Shown piece after piece: positions 21,703 through 59,664 of a stretch of 64,000 nt of DNA. The DNA comes from Clostridia bacterium (lineage in GTDB: Bacteria; Bacillota; DSM-521; Neomoorellales; SLTJ01), in assembly GCA_004347685.1 (NCBI GenBank), contig SLTJ01000037.1:7417-71416 (forward strand), written 5' to 3'. The notes beneath the pieces are model-generated. The model was not told the DNA's origin and ran no database searches. It worked only from the letters and a program-made list of their open reading frames with translations. Numbering within the stretch: the stretch's first letter is position 1; each line of letters begins with the position of its first letter. A program made the translations under genes and the position numbers.

Positions 21703-22488
21703 TCAGATGCCCGCCGGCGGGCTAAATTCAGGCACCGGCGGCAGCCGCCGCTTGTGGGCGCTGGCCCGGCGCATTGCTTCCACCTTTTCCCTGACCGCGG
21801 GACCAGCCTCGCCCGTCAGCAGGTAGCGATCCAGGTCGGCGTAGGTCAATCCCATCTCGCCCTCGTCCGTCTGGCTCTCCCACAGCCCGGCGCTGGGGGG
21901 CTTGGTAATTATTTCCTGGGGGATCCCCAGATAAGCGGCCAGTTGCCTTACCTGGCCCTTAACCAGGTTACCCAGGGGGAGAATATCCACCCCGCCGTCT
22001 CCGTACTTGGTGAAATAACCTACCTCCAGTTCGCTCCTGTTCCCCGTCCCCGCCACCAGGTAGTTCAACTGGTTGGCGAAAAAATACAGGGTAAGCATGC
22101 GCAGCCGCGGCTTCAAGTTGGCCCGGGCCAGATCCCTGACGCTCTCCACCTGACCAGACACCTGGCCCAGGAAGGCATCATAAACCGGGCCCAAGTCCAC
22201 CTGGCGGCAGGGGATGCCCACTGTTTCCGCCACCCGGCGCGCGTCCGCGGCATCGGCCGGACGGCTGTGACAGGGCATGACCAGGGCCAGGCAGTTGTCG
22301 CCGCAGGCCCGCCGGGCCAGGACCGCCACCACGGCCGAATCAATGCCCCCGCTCAGCCCCACCACCAGGCCCCCGGCCCCGCCTTCGGCAACCTGGCCTT
22401 GCAGCCACTGCACCAGCCGCTCCGCCATTTCGCTTGCTTGCACGTCCTCAGCCTCCTCGTTGTACCAAACTTCTCTGTATACAAGCAT
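21703..22488 (-). CDS. nadE: Ammonia-dependent NAD+ synthetase
   Basis: PP-loop GLSGGIDSAVVA and NadE-like length. The start could be the internal Met 21. Confidence 0.85.
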   Translation of the reverse strand: MLVYREVWYNEEAEDVQASEMAERLVQWLQGQVAEGGAGGLVVGLSGGIDSAVVAVLARRACGDNCLALVMPCHSRPADAADARRVAETVGIPCRQVDLGPVYDAFLGQVSGQVESVRDLARANLKPRLRMLTLYFFANQLNYLVAGTGNRSELEVGYFTKYGDGGVDILPLGNLVKGQVRQLAAYLGIPQEIITKPPSAGLWESQTDEGEMGLTYADLDRYLLTGEAGPAVREKVEAMRRASAHKRRLPPVPEFSPPAGI

Positions 22489-24132: not shown

Positions 24133-24260
24133 ATAAAAATAAAAAGTCCCTCCGGAGGCAGATATACTGCTCCGGAAGGACTCCATCGCCTCTCCAGGCC
24201 CATGGACGCCATTGCCCACCTGGCTCCCTCTATTATATCCTCCTCGCGAGAAATCGTCAA
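24133..24260 (-). promoter_or_regulatory. glnA-1 promoter plus ANTAR-type antiterminator/terminator leader
   Basis: TTGACG-17-TATAAT (24260-24232). Hairpin GGGC-AAUGGC-GUCC at 24204-24217 (hexaloop with A1 and G4). A second GGC-GAUGGA-GUCC hairpin has its 3' arm inside the 13-bp terminator AGUCCUUCCGGAG/CUCCGGAGGGACU plus UUUUUAUUUUU. Confidence 0.65.
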
Positions 24261-45093: not shown

Positions 45094-46602
45094 TTATGCT
45101 CCAGCCGGCTTTACTCCCAGAACTCTCAGGCTCCGCTCGTCCAGGCCCACGCCTCGCAACCGTTCCCGGCTGCCGCGCAGGCTCTCGATAGCATTTACCC
45201 CCAGGGAGCCCAGGACTTCCTTGATCTCCAGGGACCAGGCACGGATCAGGTTAACCAGGTTCTGTGCCCCTTCCTCCGGGTCCAGACGCCGCACCAGCTC
45301 CGGACGCTGGGTGGCGATGCCCCAGGCACAGTTGCCGGTATGGCATTTCTGGCAGACGCGGCATCCCAAGGCCACCAGGGCCGCAGTGCCGATGGCCACG
45401 GCGTCGGCCCCCAGGGCGATGGCCTTCACTACGTCGCCGCTATGGCGCATACCGCCAGCGGCGATGAGGGAGACGCTGTTCCGGATGCCTTCCTGCCGCA
45501 ACCGGTCGTCTACCGAGGCAATGGCCACCTCAATGGGGATGCCCACATGGTTGCGCACTATCATGGGTGTGGCCCCGGAGCCGCCCCGGAAGCCGTCAAT
45601 GTATATCATATCAGCCCCGGCCCGGGCGATGCCGCTGGCTATGGCGGCCACGTTATGCACGGCGGCGATCTTCACCGAAACCGGCCGGGTGTACCGGATG
45701 GCTTCCTTGAGGGCATAAATCAACTGGCTCAAATCTTCAATGGAGTAAATGTCATGGTGCGGGGCCGGCGACAAGGCGTCCGTGCCCACCGGGATCATCC
45801 GGGTCTCGGAGACCTCCTGGTTGACCTTTTCCCCGGGCAGATGGCCGCCGATACCCGGCTTGGCCCCCTGGCCGATCTTGATCTCGATGGCCGCCGAATG
45901 TTCCAGGTACTCCTGGTTCACCCCGAAACGGCCGGAGGCCACCTGGACCACGATGCGGTCGCTGTATGGATACAGGTCCTTGTGCAGCCCGCCCTCCCCG
46001 GTGCTCATCAGGATGCCGGCCTCCTTGGCCGCCCTGGCCAGGGCCTTATGAGCATTCAGGCTGATGGAGCCGTAGGACATGGGGGCGAAGATAATCGGCG
46101 TCTCGAGCTTGACCTGTGGAGCCAGCTCGGTGGCCAGCCGCACCTCGCCGTCCATGCCGTAACTCAGGTCCAGGCTGTTGGGCTTGCGGCCAAGATAAGT
46201 AGTGAGCTCCATGGGCTCGCGTAACGGGTCAATGGAGGGGTTGGTCACCTGACAGGCATCCAGTACCAGATGGTCAAAATACGACAGGTAGGGCCGGTCA
46301 TTGCCCATGCCGGTCAAAAGCATCCCGCCAGTGGTGGCCTGCTTCCAGATGGCCCCGCGGACCTCCGGGGTCCAGTGGGCATTTTCCTTATAAGCAATGG
46401 GGTTGGCCACCACGGTGATGGCGCTCTCCGGGCAGAAAGCCACACAGCGGTGGCAGGCCACGCATTTCCGGTGGTCGGCCACCACGCCGTCAGCAAAGGA
46501 CAGGGCGCCGAAGCTGCAGTTCAGGACGCAGCGCTTGCAACGGCGGCAGCGCTCCCGGTCCACCTGGACGATAAACTCGGCGGGTACGTTCCCGATGATC
46601 AC
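45094..46602 (-). CDS. Glutamate synthase FMN-binding domain protein with an N-terminal 2x[4Fe-4S] ferredoxin domain (archaeal-type GltB domain 2)
   Basis: CRRCKRCVLNC and CVACHRCVAFCP. Also QGAKPGIGGHLPG, DGFRGGSGATP and the 3Fe/4Fe cluster region CRVCQKCHTGNCAWG. Confidence 0.85.
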   Translation of the reverse strand: MIIGNVPAEFIVQVDRERCRRCKRCVLNCSFGALSFADGVVADHRKCVACHRCVAFCPESAITVVANPIAYKENAHWTPEVRGAIWKQATTGGMLLTGMGNDRPYLSYFDHLVLDACQVTNPSIDPLREPMELTTYLGRKPNSLDLSYGMDGEVRLATELAPQVKLETPIIFAPMSYGSISLNAHKALARAAKEAGILMSTGEGGLHKDLYPYSDRIVVQVASGRFGVNQEYLEHSAAIEIKIGQGAKPGIGGHLPGEKVNQEVSETRMIPVGTDALSPAPHHDIYSIEDLSQLIYALKEAIRYTRPVSVKIAAVHNVAAIASGIARAGADMIYIDGFRGGSGATPMIVRNHVGIPIEVAIASVDDRLRQEGIRNSVSLIAAGGMRHSGDVVKAIALGADAVAIGTAALVALGCRVCQKCHTGNCAWGIATQRPELVRRLDPEEGAQNLVNLIRAWSLEIKEVLGSLGVNAIESLRGSRERLRGVGLDERSLRVLGVKPAGA

Positions 46603-47687
46603 GCCACCACCCCCGCTTCGAGTTCGGCTATGACCGGCTCACCGGCCCGCGGGGCCCATACCTTATCCGGGGTACAGACTTCCCAAATGGCACACTCCTC
46701 GCTGGCCATGATCACCAGGTCGTCCTTGGTAGCACAAACCATAGGCCGCAGCTTGATGCGGTCATTGAAGCCCACCATCCTCCTCGCGGAGCCGATAATG
46801 AGGCTGAAGGGTCCGTTCAGCATCCCGGAACCATAAACCTGGCGGACAGCCGTGGCCAGCTCCCTTTTGGCCGGCTCCATGCGCTCGACGTCCTTCCAAA
46901 AGGGGGCCGAGAGGGCCATGCAGGCTATCTCCACCGGCAGGTGATGTCGCCGCTCCAGCAGGTCAAAGAGGTAGGCTACCACCTCGGTATCCGTTTGCAG
47001 GGTGCAGCGGTAACCGAACATCTCCAGGTAGCGCTTGTTGATCCCGTAGGATGATATCTCGCCGTTGTGCACCACTGACCATTCCAGCAGGGTAAAGGGG
47101 TGGGCTCCGCCCCACCAGCCTGGGGTGTTAGTGGGGAAACGGCCGTGGGCCGTCCACAGGTACCCCTCGTATTCCTCCAGGCGGTAGAAGTAGCCCAGGT
47201 CCTCAGGATAACCCACCCCCTTGAAGGCGCCCATATTCTTGCCGCTGGAAGCCACGTAGGCCCCGGGGATACGGTCGTTGATAAGGGTCACCCGGCTCAC
47301 CACGTAATCGTGCTCATCCACCTGCTGCCCGTTGACTTCCAGGACCCGGGGATCAACGCGCAGGAAATAGCGCCAGAGGAGGGGCGGATCCTCGATGGCC
47401 GGCGTATGCCGCACCGGGATGGGCTGGCTTTCGTCCACCTGGAAATTTTCCCGCAGGAAGGCGTCGGTCTCTTCCCGGGCCTGCTTGCTGTCAAAGATAA
47501 CATGGAAGGCATAGTGGTCGGCGTATTGCGGGTAAATCCCGTAAGCCGCAAACCCACCGCCCAGGCCGTTGGACCGGTCGTGCATGGCCGCGATGGATTT
47601 GACGATAACTTCACCGCTCATTTTTCGCCCCTGGCGGCTGATGATACCACTGATAGCACACCCTGACGGGATATAGAACTTCTCCAT
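46599..47687 (-). CDS. Class II glutamine amidotransferase domain protein (archaeal-type GltB domain 1)
   Basis: N-terminal nucleophile context SGCAISGI, Ntn-type GATase pattern. 4-nt overlap with the downstream FMN subunit gene. Confidence 0.85.
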   Translation of the reverse strand: MEKFYIPSGCAISGIISRQGRKMSGEVIVKSIAAMHDRSNGLGGGFAAYGIYPQYADHYAFHVIFDSKQAREETDAFLRENFQVDESQPIPVRHTPAIEDPPLLWRYFLRVDPRVLEVNGQQVDEHDYVVSRVTLINDRIPGAYVASSGKNMGAFKGVGYPEDLGYFYRLEEYEGYLWTAHGRFPTNTPGWWGGAHPFTLLEWSVVHNGEISSYGINKRYLEMFGYRCTLQTDTEVVAYLFDLLERRHHLPVEIACMALSAPFWKDVERMEPAKRELATAVRQVYGSGMLNGPFSLIIGSARRMVGFNDRIKLRPMVCATKDDLVIMASEECAIWEVCTPDKVWAPRAGEPVIAELEAGVVA

Positions 47688-47693
47688 AAAGCT

Positions 47694-49025
47694 TCACTCC
47701 TTCCGCCCCAGCAACTGCTTGAAATCGTCTCCAGGCGGGGCCGGTGACGGAGGCAATCCGAGTTTCTGCCGCGCCTTGACATCCGGGGCTCCCAGCCTGC
47801 CGCTCGTTAAGAATGATTTAACCGCCCCCTGCATGGAAGCCGGCGCCTTTTGCCGCTCCAGGCTCAGGTGTTTTAACGTGGTAAAAACCTTTTCCATACC
47901 GAACTTCTGCGGGCAGAGTTCGTAACAGGTATGGCACTCCAGGCACATCCAGATTTGCCGGCCAGACAGGAGAGCCTCGATCCTGCCGTCCAGCACTTCC
48001 CCGATCAGCCGGTTGGGTTCGAATTCCGGGGTGATCTCGGCTACCGGGCAGTCGCTCACGCAGGCACCGCAAGCATAGCAGTTGCGTACGGCCGCCAGAT
48101 CCAGGTGCCGGCGCACCTGGTCGAAGTCCCGGCGGTGCTTATCCCAGGACGCAAAGAAAGGCGCCAGGTCAACCCGGTGGCCGGAAAGGCCCAATTCTTC
48201 GGGTTCCAGGCCCATGGCCAGGCCCAGAAGTTCCACATAGCTGAAAACCGGCACGTGCAATTGTTCCCCCTGGCGTTGGGCCAGGTACTGTTTCTGGTCA
48301 AACTGCATGAAGCAGGACGGGCAACTCACCGTAATGGCGTCGGCGCCGGCCTCCTGCACCTCCAGCAGTTTCTTCCGGGCCAGGGCCAGGGAAGCCTCAC
48401 CCTCACCTACATTGCCCAGGGCGCCGCCGCAGCACATCATCTTGGTCTGGTACGAGAGGCTCTGAGCCCCCAGTGCCTCCACCAGGGCATCATACTTGGT
48501 GGGTTTCAAAGGATCGTCAAAGTGAATGGCCCAGCTTGGCCGCAGCAAATGGCACCCCGGGTGGACGGCGATCTTCAGGCCGTTCATGGGTTTTTCCAGC
48601 AACATGCGGATGCGGCCGGGGCCGATATCGTCGTGCAGTACCTCCAGCACGTGCTTGACCCGCACCCGGCCCCGGTAGACCAAGCCGATTTCTTCCAGGC
48701 TGGCATTTACTTCAGCCAGGGTGGCGGTGCTGGCCGCCAGTTCCGCCTGAGCCGACTTCAGGGTGCTGTAGCAACCGTTACAAAAGAGCAGCATGTCCAG
48801 CCCCTGGCGTTCGGCCAGGGCCAGATTCCGGGCCGCCGCCAGCAGCCACGCCCTATGGCCCCAGTTGGCCACCAGGTTCTTCTCCGGGCAGCAACTGAAG
48901 CCGTCCACCTCCACCCCTTCGATGCCGACCCGGGCCATCACCCCCCGGATGGATTTCTCCCAGAAGGCCAGCCGGGCGGGTATCTGGCAGCCCCAGTAAA
49001 ACACATACCGCGCGGCTTCGGCCAT
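47694..49025 (-). CDS. HdrB-like (two CCG domains) / HdrC-like (2x[4Fe-4S]) fusion protein
   Basis: CCG domain 1: YWGC..x33..FSCCP..x36..CNGC. CCG domain 2: HPGC...MMCCGG...CPSC. C-terminal CYACGACVSDCP and CLECHTCYELCP. Confidence 0.8.
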   Translation of the reverse strand: MAEAARYVFYWGCQIPARLAFWEKSIRGVMARVGIEGVEVDGFSCCPEKNLVANWGHRAWLLAAARNLALAERQGLDMLLFCNGCYSTLKSAQAELAASTATLAEVNASLEEIGLVYRGRVRVKHVLEVLHDDIGPGRIRMLLEKPMNGLKIAVHPGCHLLRPSWAIHFDDPLKPTKYDALVEALGAQSLSYQTKMMCCGGALGNVGEGEASLALARKKLLEVQEAGADAITVSCPSCFMQFDQKQYLAQRQGEQLHVPVFSYVELLGLAMGLEPEELGLSGHRVDLAPFFASWDKHRRDFDQVRRHLDLAAVRNCYACGACVSDCPVAEITPEFEPNRLIGEVLDGRIEALLSGRQIWMCLECHTCYELCPQKFGMEKVFTTLKHLSLERQKAPASMQGAVKSFLTSGRLGAPDVKARQKLGLPPSPAPPGDDFKQLLGRKE

Positions 49026-49027
49026 GC

Positions 49028-49285
49028 TCAGTCCTCCTCAAGGATGGCCAGAACTTCCCCTACCTTCACCACCTGACCTTCCTTGGCCACTATCTCCGCG
49101 ATGGTGCCGGCCGCCGGGGAGGGCACGTTAAATACCGCCTTGCTGGTAGTCATTTCCACCAGGTCGTCATCCTTCTCCACGTGATCTCCCTCGTCCACCA
49201 GCCAGTAGGAGACGGTAGCTTCCGGTGATTCCTCGGCCAGAAAGGGTAAACGGATCTCCATGGTTAAAACCTCCTTGAACTCCAT
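49028..49285 (-). CDS. Stand-alone lipoyl(biotinyl)-attachment domain protein (85 aa)
   Basis: MEIRLPFLAEESPEATVSYWLVDEGDHVEKDDDLVEMTTSKAVFNVPSPAAGTI... is the E2 lipoyl-domain pattern with the Lys in TSKA. Confidence 0.8.
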   Translation of the reverse strand: MEFKEVLTMEIRLPFLAEESPEATVSYWLVDEGDHVEKDDDLVEMTTSKAVFNVPSPAAGTIAEIVAKEGQVVKVGEVLAILEED

Positions 49286-49343
49286 GTTTTCTAGAGGAAA
49301 GTGCTCGAAAGCCTTTATCCGGCGGCAGGGCTGGCGCCTCCAC

Positions 49344-50720
49344 CTACGCGTGGATGGCCCGGCCTAGGGCCGCTTCGGCGGCTTCGGCCAGGGCCTCAGG
49401 CAGGGTGGGATGGGCGTGGATCACTTCGGCCAGTTGCGTCGCGCTCCAGCCGCCGGCCACGGCCAGGGCCGCCTCGCCGATCAGGTCGCTGGCATGGGGG
49501 CCGTGGATGTGTATACCTACCAGGCGGCCGCTCCCGGCCTCGGAGATAATCTTAACCGCGCCCTCGGCCTGGCCCATGGCCAGGGCCTTGCCGCTGGCCG
49601 TAAAGGGGAACTTGCCCACCTTCACTTCCATCCCGCGGGCGGCAGCTTCGTCCTGGGTCAGTCCTACACTGGCAATTTCGGGCTCAGTAAAAATACAGTT
49701 GGGGATTACCCGGTAGTCCATGGCCACCCTTTCCCCCAGGGCGTTGGCCGCCGCTGCCTTGCCCTGGGCGCTGGCCACGTGGGCCAGTTGCACCTTGTTG
49801 GTGATGTCGCCGATGGCGTAGACGCCGGGAAGGCTCGTCTCCAGGTACTCGTTTACCAACACTTCTCCCCTGGGGCCAAGCTGGACCCCGGCTTCGGCCA
49901 GCCCGATCCCGGCCGTGTTGAATACCCGGCCGATGGAGATGAGAGCCTTCTCCACCTTGATCTCCTGACCGCCCTCCAGTTCGGCCACCACCCAGCCGCC
50001 GTCCACCTGTATCCGAGCAATGGCGGCTTTAGTGTGGATCTCAATTCCTTGCCGCTTCAAAATGCTCTGCTGCCGGCGGGCCAGTTCCCGGTCCAAGGTG
50101 GGGAGGATATTGGGCATCATCTCCACGATGGTGACCCTGGTACCCATGGCCTGGTAAAAGGTGGCCATTTCACACCCTACCACCCCGCCGCCGATGATCA
50201 GGAGGCTCTCCGGTATCTCCTCCAACTCCAGAGCCTCGTTGCTGGTGATCACCGTCCGACCGTCATAGCCCAGGGAGGTGATCATGGCCGGCTCGCTGCC
50301 GGTGGCTAAGATGATGTTCCTGGCCTCGATGGCCTCGGTGCTACTGCCGGCCACGACGGCCAGGCGGCCCGGCCCAGCCAGAGAAGCCCGGCCGGAAATA
50401 ACCTCTACCTTGTTCTTGCGGAGCAGGGTCGCGATACCCTGACGCAACTGCTCACCCACCGCCTCTTTACGCTGGCGCAGGACTTCCGGGTTTATCCTGT
50501 AACCGTCCACCTCCACCCCGAAGGCAGCCGCCTGCTTGATCTGCTCCACCAGGGTGGCGGTAGCCAATAAGGTCTTGGTGGGGATGCAGCCCCGGTTCAG
50601 ACAGGTCCCGCCCAAGAGTCCCTGCTCCACCAGGCAGACACTGCCCCCGAGCTGGGCGGCCCGGATGGCTGCCACGTATCCCCCCGGCCCGCCACCCACA
50701 ATTGCCACGTCGAAAGCCAC
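49344..50720 (-). CDS. lpdA: Dihydrolipoyl dehydrogenase
   Basis: GGGPGGY FAD motif, redox disulfide GGTCLNRGCIPTK, NAD motif GGGVVGCE, C-terminal HAHPTLPE His-Glu dyad. Confidence 0.9.
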   Translation of the reverse strand: MAFDVAIVGGGPGGYVAAIRAAQLGGSVCLVEQGLLGGTCLNRGCIPTKTLLATATLVEQIKQAAAFGVEVDGYRINPEVLRQRKEAVGEQLRQGIATLLRKNKVEVISGRASLAGPGRLAVVAGSSTEAIEARNIILATGSEPAMITSLGYDGRTVITSNEALELEEIPESLLIIGGGVVGCEMATFYQAMGTRVTIVEMMPNILPTLDRELARRQQSILKRQGIEIHTKAAIARIQVDGGWVVAELEGGQEIKVEKALISIGRVFNTAGIGLAEAGVQLGPRGEVLVNEYLETSLPGVYAIGDITNKVQLAHVASAQGKAAAANALGERVAMDYRVIPNCIFTEPEIASVGLTQDEAAARGMEVKVGKFPFTASGKALAMGQAEGAVKIISEAGSGRLVGIHIHGPHASDLIGEAALAVAGGWSATQLAEVIHAHPTLPEALAEAAEAALGRAIHA

Positions 50721-50739
50721 TGTTTCTCCCCTTTCCTAG

Positions 50740-51477
50740 CTAATATGCATATAGGCGCCCGTAGGGCCGGCTGGAGACCGGCACCAGCTTAATGAACCTG
50801 GCCCGGCGCACGTTTTCATAGTCCAGGGCAAAATCCTGGCAGTATTCCTGTAAGTATTTGTCCAGCGCTTCCTCATCCTGCGGCTCCAGGTCGAAAACGG
50901 CCACCTCTTGGCCCAAATAAGAGGGATCCACTTCTCCCCGCAGGTAGATGACGCCGCCATGCATACCCGTGCCCAGGTAATCCCCTGTCAGCCTCTCCCC
51001 CGGCCCGCAGTCCAGCCCCAGGAGGATCGCTACCCCCCCGGCCATATACTCCCCGAAAAAGTCACCGGCCGTACCGCCGGCGATCACCACCGGCACCTGG
51101 CGGCGGTATTCCTTCATATGGATGCCCACCCGGTAGCCGACATGGCCGCGGATATGGATTTTCCCGCCCCGCATGCCGTAGCCGATCACATCCCCGGCAC
51201 TGCCGTGCACCACGATCTTGCCCTCGTTCATGGTGTTGCCGATGGCGTCCTGGCCGTCGGCGTAAACCGTGATCTCCGGGCCGTCGAGAAAAGAGCCCAG
51301 GTCGTTGCCGGGCACGCCGTGAATGGTGATCTTCACCCGGGATCTGATGCCGCTCCCCAGGTAGCGCTGGCCGTTCACCCCCACCAGCTCGATCTCCTTT
51401 TCCCCTCTGTCGGCCGCTTCCCGCAGCATCTCATTCAACCGCTTATACGGGATACCATGTGCTTCAATCCGGTACAT
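50740..51477 (-). CDS. Glutamate synthase GXGXG-domain protein (archaeal-type GltB domain 3)
   Basis: Repeated beta-helix GxxGxxxG pattern (HGSAGDVIGYGMRGGKIHIRGHVGYRVG, GTAGDFFGEYMAGG). ATG at 51477 after GGGGGAGGGG. Confidence 0.85.
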   Translation of the reverse strand: MYRIEAHGIPYKRLNEMLREAADRGEKEIELVGVNGQRYLGSGIRSRVKITIHGVPGNDLGSFLDGPEITVYADGQDAIGNTMNEGKIVVHGSAGDVIGYGMRGGKIHIRGHVGYRVGIHMKEYRRQVPVVIAGGTAGDFFGEYMAGGVAILLGLDCGPGERLTGDYLGTGMHGGVIYLRGEVDPSYLGQEVAVFDLEPQDEEALDKYLQEYCQDFALDYENVRRARFIKLVPVSSRPYGRLYAY

Positions 51478-51492
51478 ATTCCCCTCCCCCAA

Positions 51493-51610
51493 ACAAAAAA
51501 CGCCCTATCAGGCCCAACCGTGCAGTTGGACCCAACAGGACGTCTCTGCCCCAAATAACGAGGACGCCGTTGCCCTCTAACCCGATCTTGAGTTGGCAAC
51601 GGCCATTATA
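51493..51610 (-). promoter_or_regulatory. Promoter plus ANTAR-type dual-hairpin antiterminator/terminator leader of the GOGAT operon
   Basis: Extended -10 TGgTATAAT (51605-51610). P1 is GAGGGC-AACGGC-GUCCUC (51560-51577). P2 is GGGGC-AGAGAC-GUCCU (51537-51552). Both hexaloops have A1 and G4. The P2 3' arm CGUCCU pairs with AGGGCG to close a terminator followed by UUUUUU. Confidence 0.7.
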
Positions 51611-51684
51611 CCACTGCGGGCTGACAAAAGCAATTATTTTTCCCCATGTATACAGGAATAATGCGGCTGGCGGGCAAAAATTGC

Positions 51685-52272
51685 CTACCTTGGCTGCTGG
51701 AGTTCGTGGGCCAGGATGATGGCTTCAGCGATGGACTTCATGGAGGTGCACTTGTCCATGCTCTGTTTCTGGATGCGGCGGAAAGCCTCGGCCTCGCTCA
51801 GTCCCAGGGTCTCCATCAAAATGCCTTTGGCCCTCTCCACCAGCTTACGCGTTTCCAAGGTTTCCTTGAGTTTGTTGACCTCTTCCTCAAGCTGGACGAT
51901 CTTGCGGAAGTTAAGCATGGCCGACTCCACCGCCGGTATTAAATTAGCGGCCTGGACCGGGCGGGAAACAAGGGCGAAAACCCAGGACTCGCGCGCCTTC
52001 TGGATAAAATCGCTTTGCCACGAAGACGCCACCAGTAACACCGGAGCCAGGTGGTCTTCAGCAATGATCTTGGCCACTTCCAGTCCGCCCATCCCGGGCA
52101 GTTCAGCCTCGGCAATAACTATATCTGGAGAGAGGGCCCGGATTTGCCGCAGGGCCGAAGGCCCGTCCTCAGCCTCGCCGGTCACCAAGTAACCTTCCTT
52201 GGTCAGTATCTGCTTGATTCTCTTGCGCTGATTTGCATCGGCCAGAGCGATAAATATCTTTGATCGGTCCAT
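51685..52272 (-). CDS. ANTAR-domain antiterminator with a pseudo-receiver domain (RR1)
   Basis: C-terminal ANTAR RKLVERAKGILMETLGLSEAEAFRRIQKQSMDK. The receiver-like N-terminus has DIVIAEAELPGMGG where DxxxxD(I/L)xMP is expected. Confidence 0.85.
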   Translation of the reverse strand: MDRSKIFIALADANQRKRIKQILTKEGYLVTGEAEDGPSALRQIRALSPDIVIAEAELPGMGGLEVAKIIAEDHLAPVLLVASSWQSDFIQKARESWVFALVSRPVQAANLIPAVESAMLNFRKIVQLEEEVNKLKETLETRKLVERAKGILMETLGLSEAEAFRRIQKQSMDKCTSMKSIAEAIILAHELQQPR

Positions 52273-52412
52273 TGGCCACCTCAAATCGAAGTCCGGCTTG
52301 TAAAGACAACCTCACCCGGGGCGACATTCCCTTAAGCGTGGGCCGCAATTCCTTCGGCCACCTGCCCGGCCCCCGGTCCGCGAAAAGGCACACGCCCATG
52401 TGACCGCCAAGA

Positions 52413-52517
52413 GAAGAAAAAGCATCCCCAAGACAAGTACCTTGTTGTAGGGACGCCGTTGCCCACCAGACTATTATTCAGTTCCGCCGGGTATTAGCCC
52501 GAACAACTACCATGATA
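52413..52517 (-). promoter_or_regulatory. Promoter plus ANTAR-type hairpin/terminator leader ahead of RR1
   Basis: TTGTCT-17-TATCAT. Hairpin GGGC-AACGGC-GUCC at 52451-52464. Its 3' arm CGUCCC pairs with GGGAUG to form a terminator followed by CUUUUUCUU. Confidence 0.6.
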
Positions 52518-52573
52518 TCTGAGGGCCGGGAAAAAGACAATAATCGCCGCGCAAAAATATTGTATACACCCAC

Positions 52574-53983: not shown

Positions 53984-54060
53984 ATTATACCACAAGCAGG
54001 CCGGGTGGGGAACAAAAAGAGTCTGCCATCGGGAAAGATAATTTCCCAAGGTGGCAGACC
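53984..54060 (-). terminator. Intrinsic terminator after the GltB-like gene, followed by an extended -10 promoter for glnA-2
   Basis: Minus strand GGUCUGCCA..GGGAAA-UUAUC-UUUCCC..UGGCAGAC plus UCUUUUUG (54013-54060), then TGgTATAAT (53984-53989). Confidence 0.7.
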
Positions 54061-56122: not shown

Positions 56123-56250
56123 ACAAAAAAACTGCCTGGCGGCAGCTTTTCTGCTGATTTTAGCCGCTTGAGGACGCCGTTGCCCTCGCGCACAATATCC
56201 CATTGTTATTTGCCAAGTTCTTATTATAGCAGAACCAGGGCTGGCATCAA
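56123..56250 (-). promoter_or_regulatory. Promoter plus ANTAR-type hairpin/terminator leader ahead of the GltB-like/glnA-2 unit
   Basis: TTGATG-16-TATAAT (56250-56223). P1 is GAGGGC-AACGGC-GUCCUC (56170-56187). P2 is CAGC-AGAAAA-GCUG, overlapping the terminator GCUGCC-GCCA-GGCAG plus UUUUUUUU. Confidence 0.65.
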
Positions 56251-56391
56251 CAGGTGAACGACAAATATACTGTATACATGACCGACCACTATGGTTCCAT
56301 GACTGCGTCTGCACCCCGGCGCCAGCAGGTATCTCAAAATATTGAAAATAGCCCCGCACTTTCTCCGCGTTCCAACCTCCAACTTCCAATT

Positions 56392-56964
56392 TCACCTGGC
56401 TTCCTCGATCACCCTTTTGGCCACCAGGCGCATGGGCAGGCCATGGTCCATACTCTCTTTCCGCAGCATCTGGTAGGCCTCCCGCTCGGAAAGGCACAAC
56501 CTTTCCATGAGAATCCCCTTGGCTATCTCGGCTACCCGGCGCGTCTCCAGGGCTTCCTTCAAGTTGCGGTCTTCTTCCCACATATGGACAAAGGCACGGA
56601 ACTGGGCCACAGCCACTTCCATGGCAGCCACAAGCTGAATCTGCTCCACCGGCCGGATCAGATAGCCGTAAATGCCGGCCTGGCACGCCAACCCCAGGTC
56701 TTCGCACCCGGCTTCGTCGCTGATGAATACGGCCGGCGCGACCCACTGCTCGCTGAAGACCCGGGCCAGTTCAATGCCGTCCCGTCCGGCTAGCCTATGC
56801 CCGAGGAGGACCACATCCGGCTGCCGGCTAAATACCACCTGGCCCGCCTGGCGGCCGTTGTCGGTGGCCATGGTTACCAGGTAGCCGGCCTGAGTCACCT
56901 GGTCCTTCAAAACCCGCAAATACGCAGGATCGCCATAGGCAATCACCACCCGCCTGCCGCTCAC
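56392..56964 (-). CDS. ANTAR-domain antiterminator with a pseudo-receiver domain (RR2)
   Basis: ANTAR RRVAEIAKGILMERLCLSEREAYQMLRKESMDH. The receiver-like part has PDVVLLGHRLAGRDG (Gly at the phospho-acceptor position). GTG start at 56964 is inferred; the ORF is open to 57006. Confidence 0.8.
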   Translation of the reverse strand: MSGRRVVIAYGDPAYLRVLKDQVTQAGYLVTMATDNGRQAGQVVFSRQPDVVLLGHRLAGRDGIELARVFSEQWVAPAVFISDEAGCEDLGLACQAGIYGYLIRPVEQIQLVAAMEVAVAQFRAFVHMWEEDRNLKEALETRRVAEIAKGILMERLCLSEREAYQMLRKESMDHGLPMRLVAKRVIEEAR

Positions 56965-57017
56965 CTCTTTCCCCTCACCCCTACGGTCATTTTTTAGGGC
57001 AACCACAGGGGTTGCCC

Positions 57018-57531: not shown

Positions 57532-57822
57532 CATGGTCGTCTCCACCTGCTGATGACCCCAGTTCGCCCAAAGTCGGGCCAGCCAGAATGAAGGAATGAG
57601 GGGCGATTGTGGCGCCAGTGCCAAAAAGCACCAAGGCAATATTTGCTTGGGCGCCGGGATAGAACACTTGCTGGGACGGGGTAATATAAATAACCGTAGG
57701 TTTTCGGGGCAACGGCTGTCCCGGTCAAAATTGCACCGGGCCGCTTTTTGTTTCTTGGGCGGAGACATCTTATCAAATGGATGGAGCCGACCTCTACCTT
57801 ATTTCATGGAGGGATAGCCAGC

Positions 57823-59664
57823 ATGTGCGGTATTTCCGGCTGGATAGACTGGGAAGCAGACCTTACCCGTGAAGCGGACATTCTACAAGCCATGGCCGAA
57901 ACTCTGGCCGGCCGCGGCCCGGATGCGGCCGGGCTGTGGCTTTCCCGGAGTGCCGGGCTGGCCCACCGCCGGCTCATTGTCATTGACCCCGAAGGCGGAA
58001 GCCAGCCCATGGTCCGGCAGCGCGGTAACGAAACCTTTGTCCTGGTGTATAACGGCGAACTGTATAACACCGAGGAACTTCGGCAGGAACTAGTGGCACG
58101 TGGCTACAACTTTCTGGGCCATTCTGACACTGAGGTACTCCTGACAGCCTATATGGAGTGGGGGCCGGCTGCCGTGGAACGCCTGAACGGCATTTTCGCC
58201 TTTGCAGTCTGGGAAGAATCCGGTCAGCGCCTGTTTCTGGCCCGCGACCCCCTGGGAGTGAAGCCGCTGTTTTATTTCCACCGGGGTAATTCCTTCCTCT
58301 TCGCTTCTGAGATCAAAGCCCTCCTGGCCCACCCGGCCGTGAAGCCGGAAATCGGGGCCGAGGGTCTGGCCGAGGTTTTCGGCCTGGGCCCGGCCCGGAC
58401 GCCAGGTGGCGGAGTTTTCCGCGGGGTGGCCGAGCTGAAGCCGGGGCATTACCTGGTGGTGGAGCGCCGGGGCGTTCACAGCCAACGGTACTGGGGCCTC
58501 GACAGCCACCCCCATGAAGATGACCTGGAGGCCACCGCCGCGACGGTCCGGGAACTGGTGCAGGACGCTGTCAAGCGCCAGCTCGTTGCGGATGTACCCC
58601 TGTGTGTTCTGCTTTCCGGCGGGCTGGACTCCAGCGCCGTCGCCGCCGTGGCGGCCGGCGCTTTCCAGCAGCAGGGCCTGAGGCTCGCCACCTTTTCCGT
58701 GGACTATCACGATAACGACCGCTATTTCACGCCCAGCGACTTTCAACCCAATGCCGACGGCCCGTGGATAGAAATGATATCCCGGCACCTGGACACCGAC
58801 CACCATGCCGTGGCCCTGGATACCCCTGAACTGGTGACAGCCCTACGCGCCGCCATGCGCGCCCGGGACCTGCCGGGCATGGCCGACGTGGATTCTTCCC
58901 TCTACCTGTTTTGCCGCCAGGTAAAAGAGGGGGCCACCGTAGCCCTGGTGGGAGAGGCTGCCGACGAGGTTTTCGGCGGGTACCCGTGGTTCCGGCGCGC
59001 AGACGCCTTTAACGCTGACACCTTCCCCTGGGCCCTGAGCACACACTTGCGCGAGCAAGTTCTCTCCCCGGAACTGACCAGCTATGTCCGCCCGCGGGAG
59101 TATGTGGCCGACCGCTACCAGCAGGCCCTGGCCGAAGTGCCGCGCCTGCCGGGGGAAGAAGCACGCGCGGCCCGCCTGCGGGAAATTTCCTACTTGAGCC
59201 TCACCCGCTTTCTCCCGGTACTGCTGGAGCGGATGGACCGGATGAGCATGGCCGTGGGGCTGGAAATCCGGGTACCGTACTGCGACCCCCACCTGGTGCA
59301 GTATGTTTGGAACGTCCCCTGGGAGATAAAGACCTCTGGCGGCATGGTCAAGGGCCTCCTACGCCAGGCCCTGCACGGGCTGCTGCCAGAGCCGGTCCTG
59401 TACCGGCCCAAGAGCCCTTACCCCAAGACCCACAACCCCAGTTTCACGACCGCGGTCCGGCAGGGAATGGCGCAAATCCTGGCCGACCCTACTTCACCTT
59501 TACTGCCACTGATAAATACCGAATTCATCCGGCACCTGGCCGGCTCCGACCTTCAGGACATCAGCCTGCCCTGGTTCGGGCAATTGATGACCGGACCGCA
59601 GCTCTTCGCCTACCTGATGCAGATGGATGCGTGGCTGCGGCAATACAGGATAAGCATCTGCTGA
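57823..59664 (+). CDS. asnB: Asparagine synthase (glutamine-hydrolysing)
   Basis: Start MCGISGW (N-terminal Cys nucleophile) after GGAGGG. PP-loop LLSGGLDSS. Confidence 0.9.
   Translation: MCGISGWIDWEADLTREADILQAMAETLAGRGPDAAGLWLSRSAGLAHRRLIVIDPEGGSQPMVRQRGNETFVLVYNGELYNTEELRQELVARGYNFLGHSDTEVLLTAYMEWGPAAVERLNGIFAFAVWEESGQRLFLARDPLGVKPLFYFHRGNSFLFASEIKALLAHPAVKPEIGAEGLAEVFGLGPARTPGGGVFRGVAELKPGHYLVVERRGVHSQRYWGLDSHPHEDDLEATAATVRELVQDAVKRQLVADVPLCVLLSGGLDSSAVAAVAAGAFQQQGLRLATFSVDYHDNDRYFTPSDFQPNADGPWIEMISRHLDTDHHAVALDTPELVTALRAAMRARDLPGMADVDSSLYLFCRQVKEGATVALVGEAADEVFGGYPWFRRADAFNADTFPWALSTHLREQVLSPELTSYVRPREYVADRYQQALAEVPRLPGEEARAARLREISYLSLTRFLPVLLERMDRMSMAVGLEIRVPYCDPHLVQYVWNVPWEIKTSGGMVKGLLRQALHGLLPEPVLYRPKSPYPKTHNPSFTTAVRQGMAQILADPTSPLLPLINTEFIRHLAGSDLQDISLPWFGQLMTGPQLFAYLMQMDAWLRQYRISIC

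Follow-up and report, generated by a model that had tools for sequence, protein, structure and literature searches.

A predicted ANTAR-type transcription attenuator precedes a split glutamate synthase operon in an anaerobic Bacillota bacterium

A dual-hexaloop leader probably gates glutamate synthase expression

The leader of a split glutamate synthase (GOGAT) operon in an anaerobic Bacillota bacterium (order of Moorellaceae) is very probably an ANTAR-type transcription attenuator that gates the operon, and it explains how the bacterium probably switches on these unusual genes. ANTAR substrates consist of two small tandem hairpins with hexaloops that carry A at position 1 and G at position 4 (A1/G4), and the second hairpin (P2) provides the 5' base of an intrinsic terminator (Ramesh et al., 2012, PMC3369931). 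Mutation of A1 or G4, or loss of either hairpin, abolishes EutV-dependent induction, and EutV binds with full affinity only when both are present (Ramesh et al., 2012, PMC3369931). A first-pass annotation of the 64,000-nucleotide stretch of DNA analyzed here (the window) had read the GOGAT leader as an ANTAR antiterminator. Our analyses support this reading, as judged from sequence: the leader contains every sequence-level feature that defines the published substrate. Comparisons with relatives lend the assignment independent support through the score of a covariance model (R1), covariation within the first hairpin (P1), same-family synteny, and linkage between the putative site and ANTAR genes.

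A predicted antiterminator hairpin and a terminator share one arm

Coordinates below are window positions, and features lie on the minus strand unless indicated otherwise. The promoter motif reported by the first-pass annotation, the extended -10 element TGgTATAAT (TGGTATAAT), is present at 51613-51605 and is the core of a promoter predicted by reading the sequence. A -35-like hexamer read in the same way, TTGCTT (51628-51633), is separated from TATAAT by a 17-nt spacer; it is a weak -35 that agrees with the consensus at 3 of 6 positions, which accounts for its absence from the promoter-scan list. Transcription is predicted to start at ~51598-51600. Elements of the TGnTATAAT type recur at 56231-56223, in the leader that we call element A, and at 53993-53985, before glnA.

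Sequence reading and folding place P1 (GAGGGC-AACGGC-GUCCUC) at 51560-51577, with a 5' arm at 51577-51572, a loop at 51571-51566, and a 3' arm at 51565-51560 that together form 6 bp closed by a hexaloop. P1 is the clade-conserved hairpin of the ANTAR type. After a linker of 6-7 nt follows P2, (U)GGGGC-AGAGAC-GUCCU(G), at 51536-51553, which was recognized in the sequence, by a dual-hexaloop scan, and by folding. P2 is a predicted antiterminator hairpin in which GGGGC (51552-51548) and GUCCU (51541-51537) flank the hexaloop AGAGAC (51547-51542); it has 5-6 bp, depending on an outer U51553-G51536 pair, and includes two G-U pairs. Both loops have 6 nt and the A1/G4 signature, so the two hairpins described by the first-pass annotation are confirmed to the base. 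Relative to the clade consensus AAnGGc, the P2 loop departs at positions 2 and 5 and keeps A1, G4, and the C-G closing pair.

A terminator scan and folding identify an intrinsic terminator at 51495-51543, composed of a 20-bp hairpin (51543-51500) with a GCAC loop followed by U6 (51500-51495). The first-pass annotation had described a terminator with a CGUCCU/AGGGCG base and a U tract; both are present, but they belong to a continuous hairpin of 20 pairs that is stronger than described. Its further claim that the P2 3' arm doubles as the 5' base of the terminator is borne out by scan and folding alike, since the terminator 5' arm (51543-51524) has A51543-U51537 in common with P2 loop positions 5-6 and the entire P2 3' arm. 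P2 and the terminator, with their overlapping arms, are mutually exclusive, as in ANTAR substrates. The U6 tract ends 18 nt 5' of the ATG (51477-51475) of the first GOGAT-operon gene, which was read from the sequence together with its ribosome-binding site GGGGGAGGGG (51490-51481; site plus start codon, 51475-51490).

Folding also revealed an optional third hexaloop hairpin, P0 (AACUC-AAGAUC-GGGUU, loop A1/A4), at 51579-51594, directly 5' of P1; P0 might sit partly 5' of the transcription start. The segment CCGUUGCC (51602-51595) can pair with GGCAACGG (51574-51567, within P1) to create an alternative fold that encloses P0 and excludes P1 (51602-51556, -16.7 kcal/mol, z = -2.5). Given a sufficiently upstream transcript start, this fold could sequester half of P1, and it may act as an anti-antiterminator or be coincidental, according to where transcription truly begins.

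The leader lies between an ANTAR gene and the GOGAT operon

The predicted regulated operon (45094-51477, Pfam scan) encodes, in gene order, a GXGXG protein, Pyr_redox_2 (Lpd-like), a lipoyl-domain protein, CCG/Fer4, GATase_2, and Glu_synthase (FMN) with Fer4. It is the last part of a minus-strand cluster that Pfam resolves as RRa, element A, a Glu_synthase-like gene (535 aa), glnA, element B, RRb, the GOGAT leader, and the split GOGAT operon, where RRa and RRb each combine a receiver with an ANTAR domain. An asnB gene is divergent at 57825, and a second glnA lies with nadE at 24025-21703. RRb (51685-52284, likely start ATG 52272) scores 83.6 bits against the Pfam ANTAR model, and its gene ends at 51685, 72 nt upstream of the leader's -10 element. 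The first-pass annotation had placed the leader directly 3' of an ANTAR gene and 5' of a GOGAT operon, and the Pfam assignments agree on both sides, with the GOGAT genes being of the split type.

The genome encodes no ANTAR proteins besides RRb and RRa (56392-57006, identified by Pfam and translation). Neither has the phospho-acceptor Asp at the end of receiver beta-3. RRb has Glu in this position (PDIVIAE), where ~30 of ~30 orthologues examined have Asp (PDLVILD); RRa has Gly (PDVVLLG), where same-family orthologues have Asn or Ser. Judged by their sequences, RRa and RRb probably function as ANTAR antiterminators do, but it would be wrong to class them with standard regulators activated by phosphorylation, and by analogy they seem to resemble pseudo-receivers of the AmiR type. 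Since neither protein can be phosphorylated on the usual Asp, they are probably activated not by a kinase but through a partner, a ligand, or the abundance of the regulator. We noticed no gene for a histidine kinase in the ORFs that were scanned around the cluster. PII and amt genes are present elsewhere in the genome, and their products could supply the regulator's partner.

The terminator is the predicted default fold

RNA folding, a check proposed by the first-pass annotation, separates the two competing structures clearly. The terminator hairpin folds at -34.9 kcal/mol (z = -8.0 versus shuffles), compared to -14.5 kcal/mol for P1 and P2 alone, and the full leader favors the combination of P1 and terminator at -45.3 kcal/mol. 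These values therefore make the terminator the default state of unassisted RNA, and RNA without protein should, on energetic grounds, terminate by default.

We asked how readily such an arrangement arises by chance. Within this genome, a hairpin of at least 5 bp with an A1/G4 hexaloop starts in a given 30-nt interval with a probability of 0.014, which is the chance of obtaining the second hairpin given P1. When the genome was scanned strictly for dual A1/G4 hexaloops overlapped by a terminator, five matches were obtained, among which the GOGAT leader has by far the strongest terminator (-29 versus -8.6 to -19.6 kcal/mol). The combination of dual hexaloop and overlapping terminator is in excess of chance. 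The P1 14-mer GGGCAACGGCGTCC has exactly 3 copies in the 3.1-Mb genome, all on the same strand and in intergenic leaders of the nitrogen cluster, and the full P1 18-mer recurs at 56187-56170 within element A.

Two looser descriptors were rejected. Dual A1/G4 hexaloops without a terminator requirement gave 262 matches per genome and were not enriched versus other loop classes; the loose motif is therefore not diagnostic alone. A single-hairpin-plus-terminator descriptor gave 39 A/G matches versus 17-67 for control loop classes, and so it cannot define the regulon, though the known elements rank near the top. An Rfam scan of 40000-64000 (E up to 10) returned spurious snoRNA and IRES matches only and no family for the leader.

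These data bear on a rival explanation in which the hairpin and U6 simply terminate the upstream regulator gene constitutively, P1 and P2 arose by coincidence, and initiation is the operon's sole point of control. The hairpin is the first terminator past the regulator's stop codon, loose hexaloop motifs are common by chance, and the occurrence of a palindrome, TGTATACA, upstream of three cluster promoters suggests that a DNA-level regulator acts as well. We nevertheless regard this explanation as very improbable. A constitutive terminator located 3' of the TGnTATAAT promoter and 18 nt before the ATG would silence that promoter, repetition of the P1 18-mer at another attenuator and the scarcity of its 14-mer core do not suit a fortuitous hairpin, and the R1 score, synteny, and ANTAR-gene linkage described below would be unexpected by chance.

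A covariance model built from other genomes ranks the leader first

R1 was trained on 10 dual hairpins taken from other genomes only and is not the published ANTAR model. In a first alignment (A1), leaders whose P1 is the conserved hairpin fell out of register under MAFFT; R1 was built from a second alignment (A2) restricted to leaders that have this hairpin as P2. Run with filters off, R1 placed 51580-51535 at the top of the window (30.4 bits, E 2.6e-4), aligned in the register of the first-pass annotation and with P2 at the model's P2 position. Across the 3.1-Mb genome the GOGAT leader was again the best match (E 0.0125), with elements A and D next. The covariance-model check suggested by the first-pass annotation, here with a model drawn from relatives, thus ranks the leader first in window and genome.

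Among 26 distinct R1 matches, 95% of cells pair, as compared to 73% in shuffles and 36-51% with slid partners, figures that lean towards structure because the alignment was fitted to R1. All six P1 pairs change on both sides in this set. P2 is nearly invariant, which is partly a consequence of the loci having been picked with the search pattern.

Related genomes link the hairpin to ANTAR genes

We searched 28 genomes of the order, Moorellaceae included (locus L166 is a contig of genome G018), with the pattern GGGCAAHGGCGYCC and obtained 61 matches versus 10 for a reversed control. The pattern occurs in 22 of the 23 ANTAR-positive genomes and, in 21 of the 23, within ~250 nt downstream of the ANTAR domain. 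The five ANTAR-negative genomes have 0-2 matches each, and the two examined looked coding.

Synteny is clearest within the family. Genome G003 has the order glnA, ANTAR response regulator, dual hexaloop with terminator, split GOGAT, and amt, and its leader reads GGGGC-AACGGG-GCCCC plus GGGC-AAAGGC-GUCC plus terminator. In genome G001 (loci L151 and L152), the same gene is preceded by GGGGGC-AAAGGC-GCCCCC, GGGC-AAAGGC-GUCC, and a terminator. When 60 relatives were searched by DNA sequence with the leader and its flanks, the ANTAR-coding part alone gave matches; the leader itself shows no conservation as DNA sequence. We also set aside the regions 5' of the GXGXG gene at 80 loci, which are mostly coding because gene order differs.

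The linkage between hairpin and ANTAR genes speaks to the possibility that the conserved hairpin is read by a non-ANTAR agent, either another RNA-binding protein or a small ligand acting through a riboswitch. Both ANTAR proteins have atypical receivers and ANTAR binding is predicted from sequence, so there is some room for such a reader, but we find the idea scarcely credible. The hairpin lacks the size needed for any known ligand pocket and has no Rfam match, it co-occurs with and adjoins ANTAR genes in 21 genomes of the order, and its core equals the published site of the ANTAR protein GnfR.

The commonest form in the order is a single GGGC-AACGGC-GUCC hairpin that lies between the gene for an ANTAR regulator and glnA and lacks an evident second hexaloop, as observed at L098, L101, L108, L113, L114, L131, and L148 (Moorellaceae and relatives). 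In this form, the loop end and 3' arm serve as the terminator 5' arm (GGCGUCCUG...CAGGACGC plus U5). The single-hairpin form departs from the two-hairpin rule, and the number of relatives with a single overlapped hairpin means that some members of the clade may not require a pair.

The GOGAT leader could be an ANTAR attenuator in which one hairpin is the true protein contact and the other hexaloop, unbound, matters by base pairing alone. Such a reading draws on the seven single-hairpin loci and element B, and on the P2 loop being degenerate at positions 2 and 5. We consider it improbable for this leader, however. P1, the conserved hairpin, makes no contact with the terminator, so binding of P1 alone would leave the terminator unblocked; P2 retains A1, G4, and the C-G closing pair; the same-family leaders of G001 and G003 are clear duals; and EutV requires both hairpins for full affinity (PMC3369931).

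The leader resembles known ANTAR systems of nitrogen metabolism

GnfR and NitR are the closest characterized systems. The GnfR site of Geobacter sulfurreducens, CAGGCAANGGCGCC, precedes and overlaps terminators in the leaders of nitrogen genes (Ueki and Lovley, 2010, PMC2995071). P1 (AGGGCAACGGCGUC) agrees with this site at 11 of 14 positions, and the core of the GnfR site, GGCAANGGCG, is identical to that in P1 (GGGCAACGGCGUCC). The location is also of the GnfR type, as P1 lies upstream of a leader terminator and the hairpins of elements B and E overlap theirs directly. GnfR, which works with GnfK, is likewise an ANTAR response regulator that antiterminates nitrogen-gene leaders, but it is activated by a cognate kinase, targets nif, glnK, and amtB, and belongs to a different phylum.

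In Clostridium saccharobutylicum, NitR is encoded beside glnA and is reported to induce GS/GOGAT genes on nitrogen limitation (PMC6316151, PMC4676874). A Clostridium thermocellum NitR homologue is co-expressed with its own GS-GOGAT cluster. The resemblance to our system is of an ANTAR-family antiterminator beside glnA (glnA-nitR-gltAB in C. saccharobutylicum and C. acetobutylicum; Stutz et al., 2007, as cited in PMC6316151 and PMC4676874) and comes from gene context rather than from the RNA site; an antisense RNA layer is also described for the NitR system.

The eut leaders of Enterococcus faecalis, controlled by EutV/EutW, share with the GOGAT leader tandem A1/G4 hexaloops, overlap between P2 and the terminator, and a regulator with receiver and ANTAR domains. 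The system described here differs in that its targets are GS/GOGAT rather than ethanolamine utilization genes, its regulators lack the phospho-acceptor Asp, and its terminator is unusually long (20 bp). AmiR/AmiC of Pseudomonas aeruginosa and NasR/nasF of Klebsiella offer a further parallel in ANTAR antitermination on a hexaloop leader, and AmiR is also an unphosphorylated pseudo-receiver. AmiR answers to the ligand sensor AmiC and NasR to its NIT domain, and we identified neither such a partner nor such a domain in this system.

ANTAR attenuators before GS/GOGAT genes of this lineage were already predicted in 2012, and the GOGAT leader introduces no new principle. Figure 9 and Table S2 of that study place predicted ANTAR sites upstream of genes for glutamate synthase, glutamine synthetase, and ANTAR regulators in Desulfotomaculum reducens, D. 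acetoxidans, Moorella thermoacetica, Pelotomaculum thermopropionicum, Carboxydothermus hydrogenoformans, and Desulforudis audaxviator (Ramesh et al., 2012, PMC3369931). Those sites resemble ours in the neighborhood of ANTAR regulator, glnA, and glutamate synthase, in the combination of motif and overlapping terminator, and in their broad Bacillota lineage, and they are likewise computational predictions. The genome studied here belongs to a different family, and its operon differs from the 2012 loci in beginning with the GXGXG subunit and in embedding Lpd-like, lipoyl, and Hdr-like genes. In view of these predictions and of the characterized GnfR and NitR systems, the GOGAT leader is a further example of a published kind.

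Sister elements suggest a small nitrogen-assimilation regulon

Four additional attenuators in the window share one hairpin, GGGC-AA(C/U)GGC-GUCC. Element A (56125-56187), found by pattern search and folding before the Glu_synthase-like gene and glnA, scores 24.7 bits with R1. Its P1 is identical to that of the GOGAT leader, and it has a candidate P2 (CAGC-AGAAAA-GCUG) and a CUGCC-GCCA-GGCAG terminator followed by U7; the candidate P2 is without G4 and is not kept in G001 or G003. Element B (52417-52464), identified by folding and locus reading before RRb, scores 17.9 bits and consists of a single GGGC-AACGGC-GUCC hairpin that is directly overlapped by its terminator (GGCGUCCCUA...UGGGGAUGCU plus U5). 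Element D (24135-24217), recognized by folding before the second glnA and nadE, scores 22.5 bits and combines GGGC-AAUGGC-GUCC with a second, degenerate hairpin and with a strong terminator plus U5AU5. Element E (57706-57749, plus strand), detected by folding before asnB, scores just 8.9 bits and has a 7-nt loop (GGGGC-AACGGCU-GUCCC) overlapped by its terminator plus U5.

ANTAR-like units are also found outside the window. Both amt leaders, located on another contig (C7:45560-45760 and C7:52130-52290, plus strand), have ANTAR-like hairpin-plus-terminator units, with hairpins that include GGGC-ACAGGC-GCCC, GGGGC-AAGGGC-GCCC, and GUGGUGGAAC-AAUGGU-GUUCUGCCAU. We accordingly rejected a regulon confined to the window. 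The amt leaders were missed by the pattern and by R1, which indicates a regulon larger than those searches suggest.

Taking the GOGAT leader as an ANTAR attenuator, we propose the following mechanism. Transcripts would begin at the predicted TGgTATAAT promoter, and read-through from the upstream regulator gene would meet the same leader. By default, to judge from the energetics, nascent RNA would form the 20-bp terminator and stop at U6, 18 nt before the ATG. Once active, an ANTAR protein of the cluster would, by analogy to EutV, GnfR, and NitR, bind as a dimer to the A1/G4 hexaloops of P1 and P2 and keep the GUCCU arm of P2 from the terminator, which would allow RNA polymerase to enter the operon. 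The leader would then be one node of a small nitrogen-assimilation regulon sharing one hairpin and comprising two glnA units, asnB, a regulator gene, and GOGAT in the window, plus the two amt leaders on the other contig. Nitrogen limitation is the likely signal.

The position of element B before RRb permits a more elaborate joint reading, a kinase-less, two-tier ANTAR cascade that ends at the GOGAT leader. A partner or ligand would allow RRa to respond to nitrogen status, and RRa would then open both attenuator A and attenuator B, the latter of which gates RRb; the lineage-specific Asp-to-Glu change would make RRb constitutively active; and GOGAT read-through would be set by RRb abundance rather than by phosphorylation. 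We think it rather unlikely that all these parts hold together.

The attenuator assignment helps annotate the compact ANTAR regulon of this genome, which has at least five leaders in the window and more before amt genes. A clean, strongly folding dual hexaloop occurs here beside single-hairpin variants and two non-phosphorylatable regulators, a combination that could be a test bed for the control of pseudo-receiver ANTAR proteins.

Some nitrogen genes may also be controlled at the DNA level

The glnA gene of the main cluster (53905-52574) has the promoter-like sequence TGTGGTATAAT directly upstream (53985-53995) and no attenuator before its start codon; this gene may thus be expressed from its own promoter as well as by read-through from element A.

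The palindrome TGTATACA has 15 copies in the genome. Three of them (51647-51654, 52561-52568, and 56271-56278) lie ~52-59 nt 5' of the predicted starts of attenuator promoters, which we label C, B, and A in coordinate order. A fourth copy (22476-22483) is in the spacer between the second glnA and nadE, and G003 has ACAGTATACATGG in its glnA-to-regulator spacer. TGTATACA may be an operator of a DNA-binding nitrogen regulator and provide a second layer of control. By eye, no TnrA/GlnR box (TGTNAN7TNACA) was seen in the GOGAT-leader promoter.

In Peptococcaceae and Thermacetogeniaceae MAGs, the GXGXG leader is devoid of an ANTAR attenuator and the regulator is followed directly by glnA. Six of these loci (L010, L015, L018, L022, L024, and L038) have a conserved promoter block, ACATTGTATTCA...ATTGTAATTTACA...GCTGATATAAT, ~60-110 nt 5' of the GXGXG gene, which suggests control by a DNA-binding regulator in those organisms.
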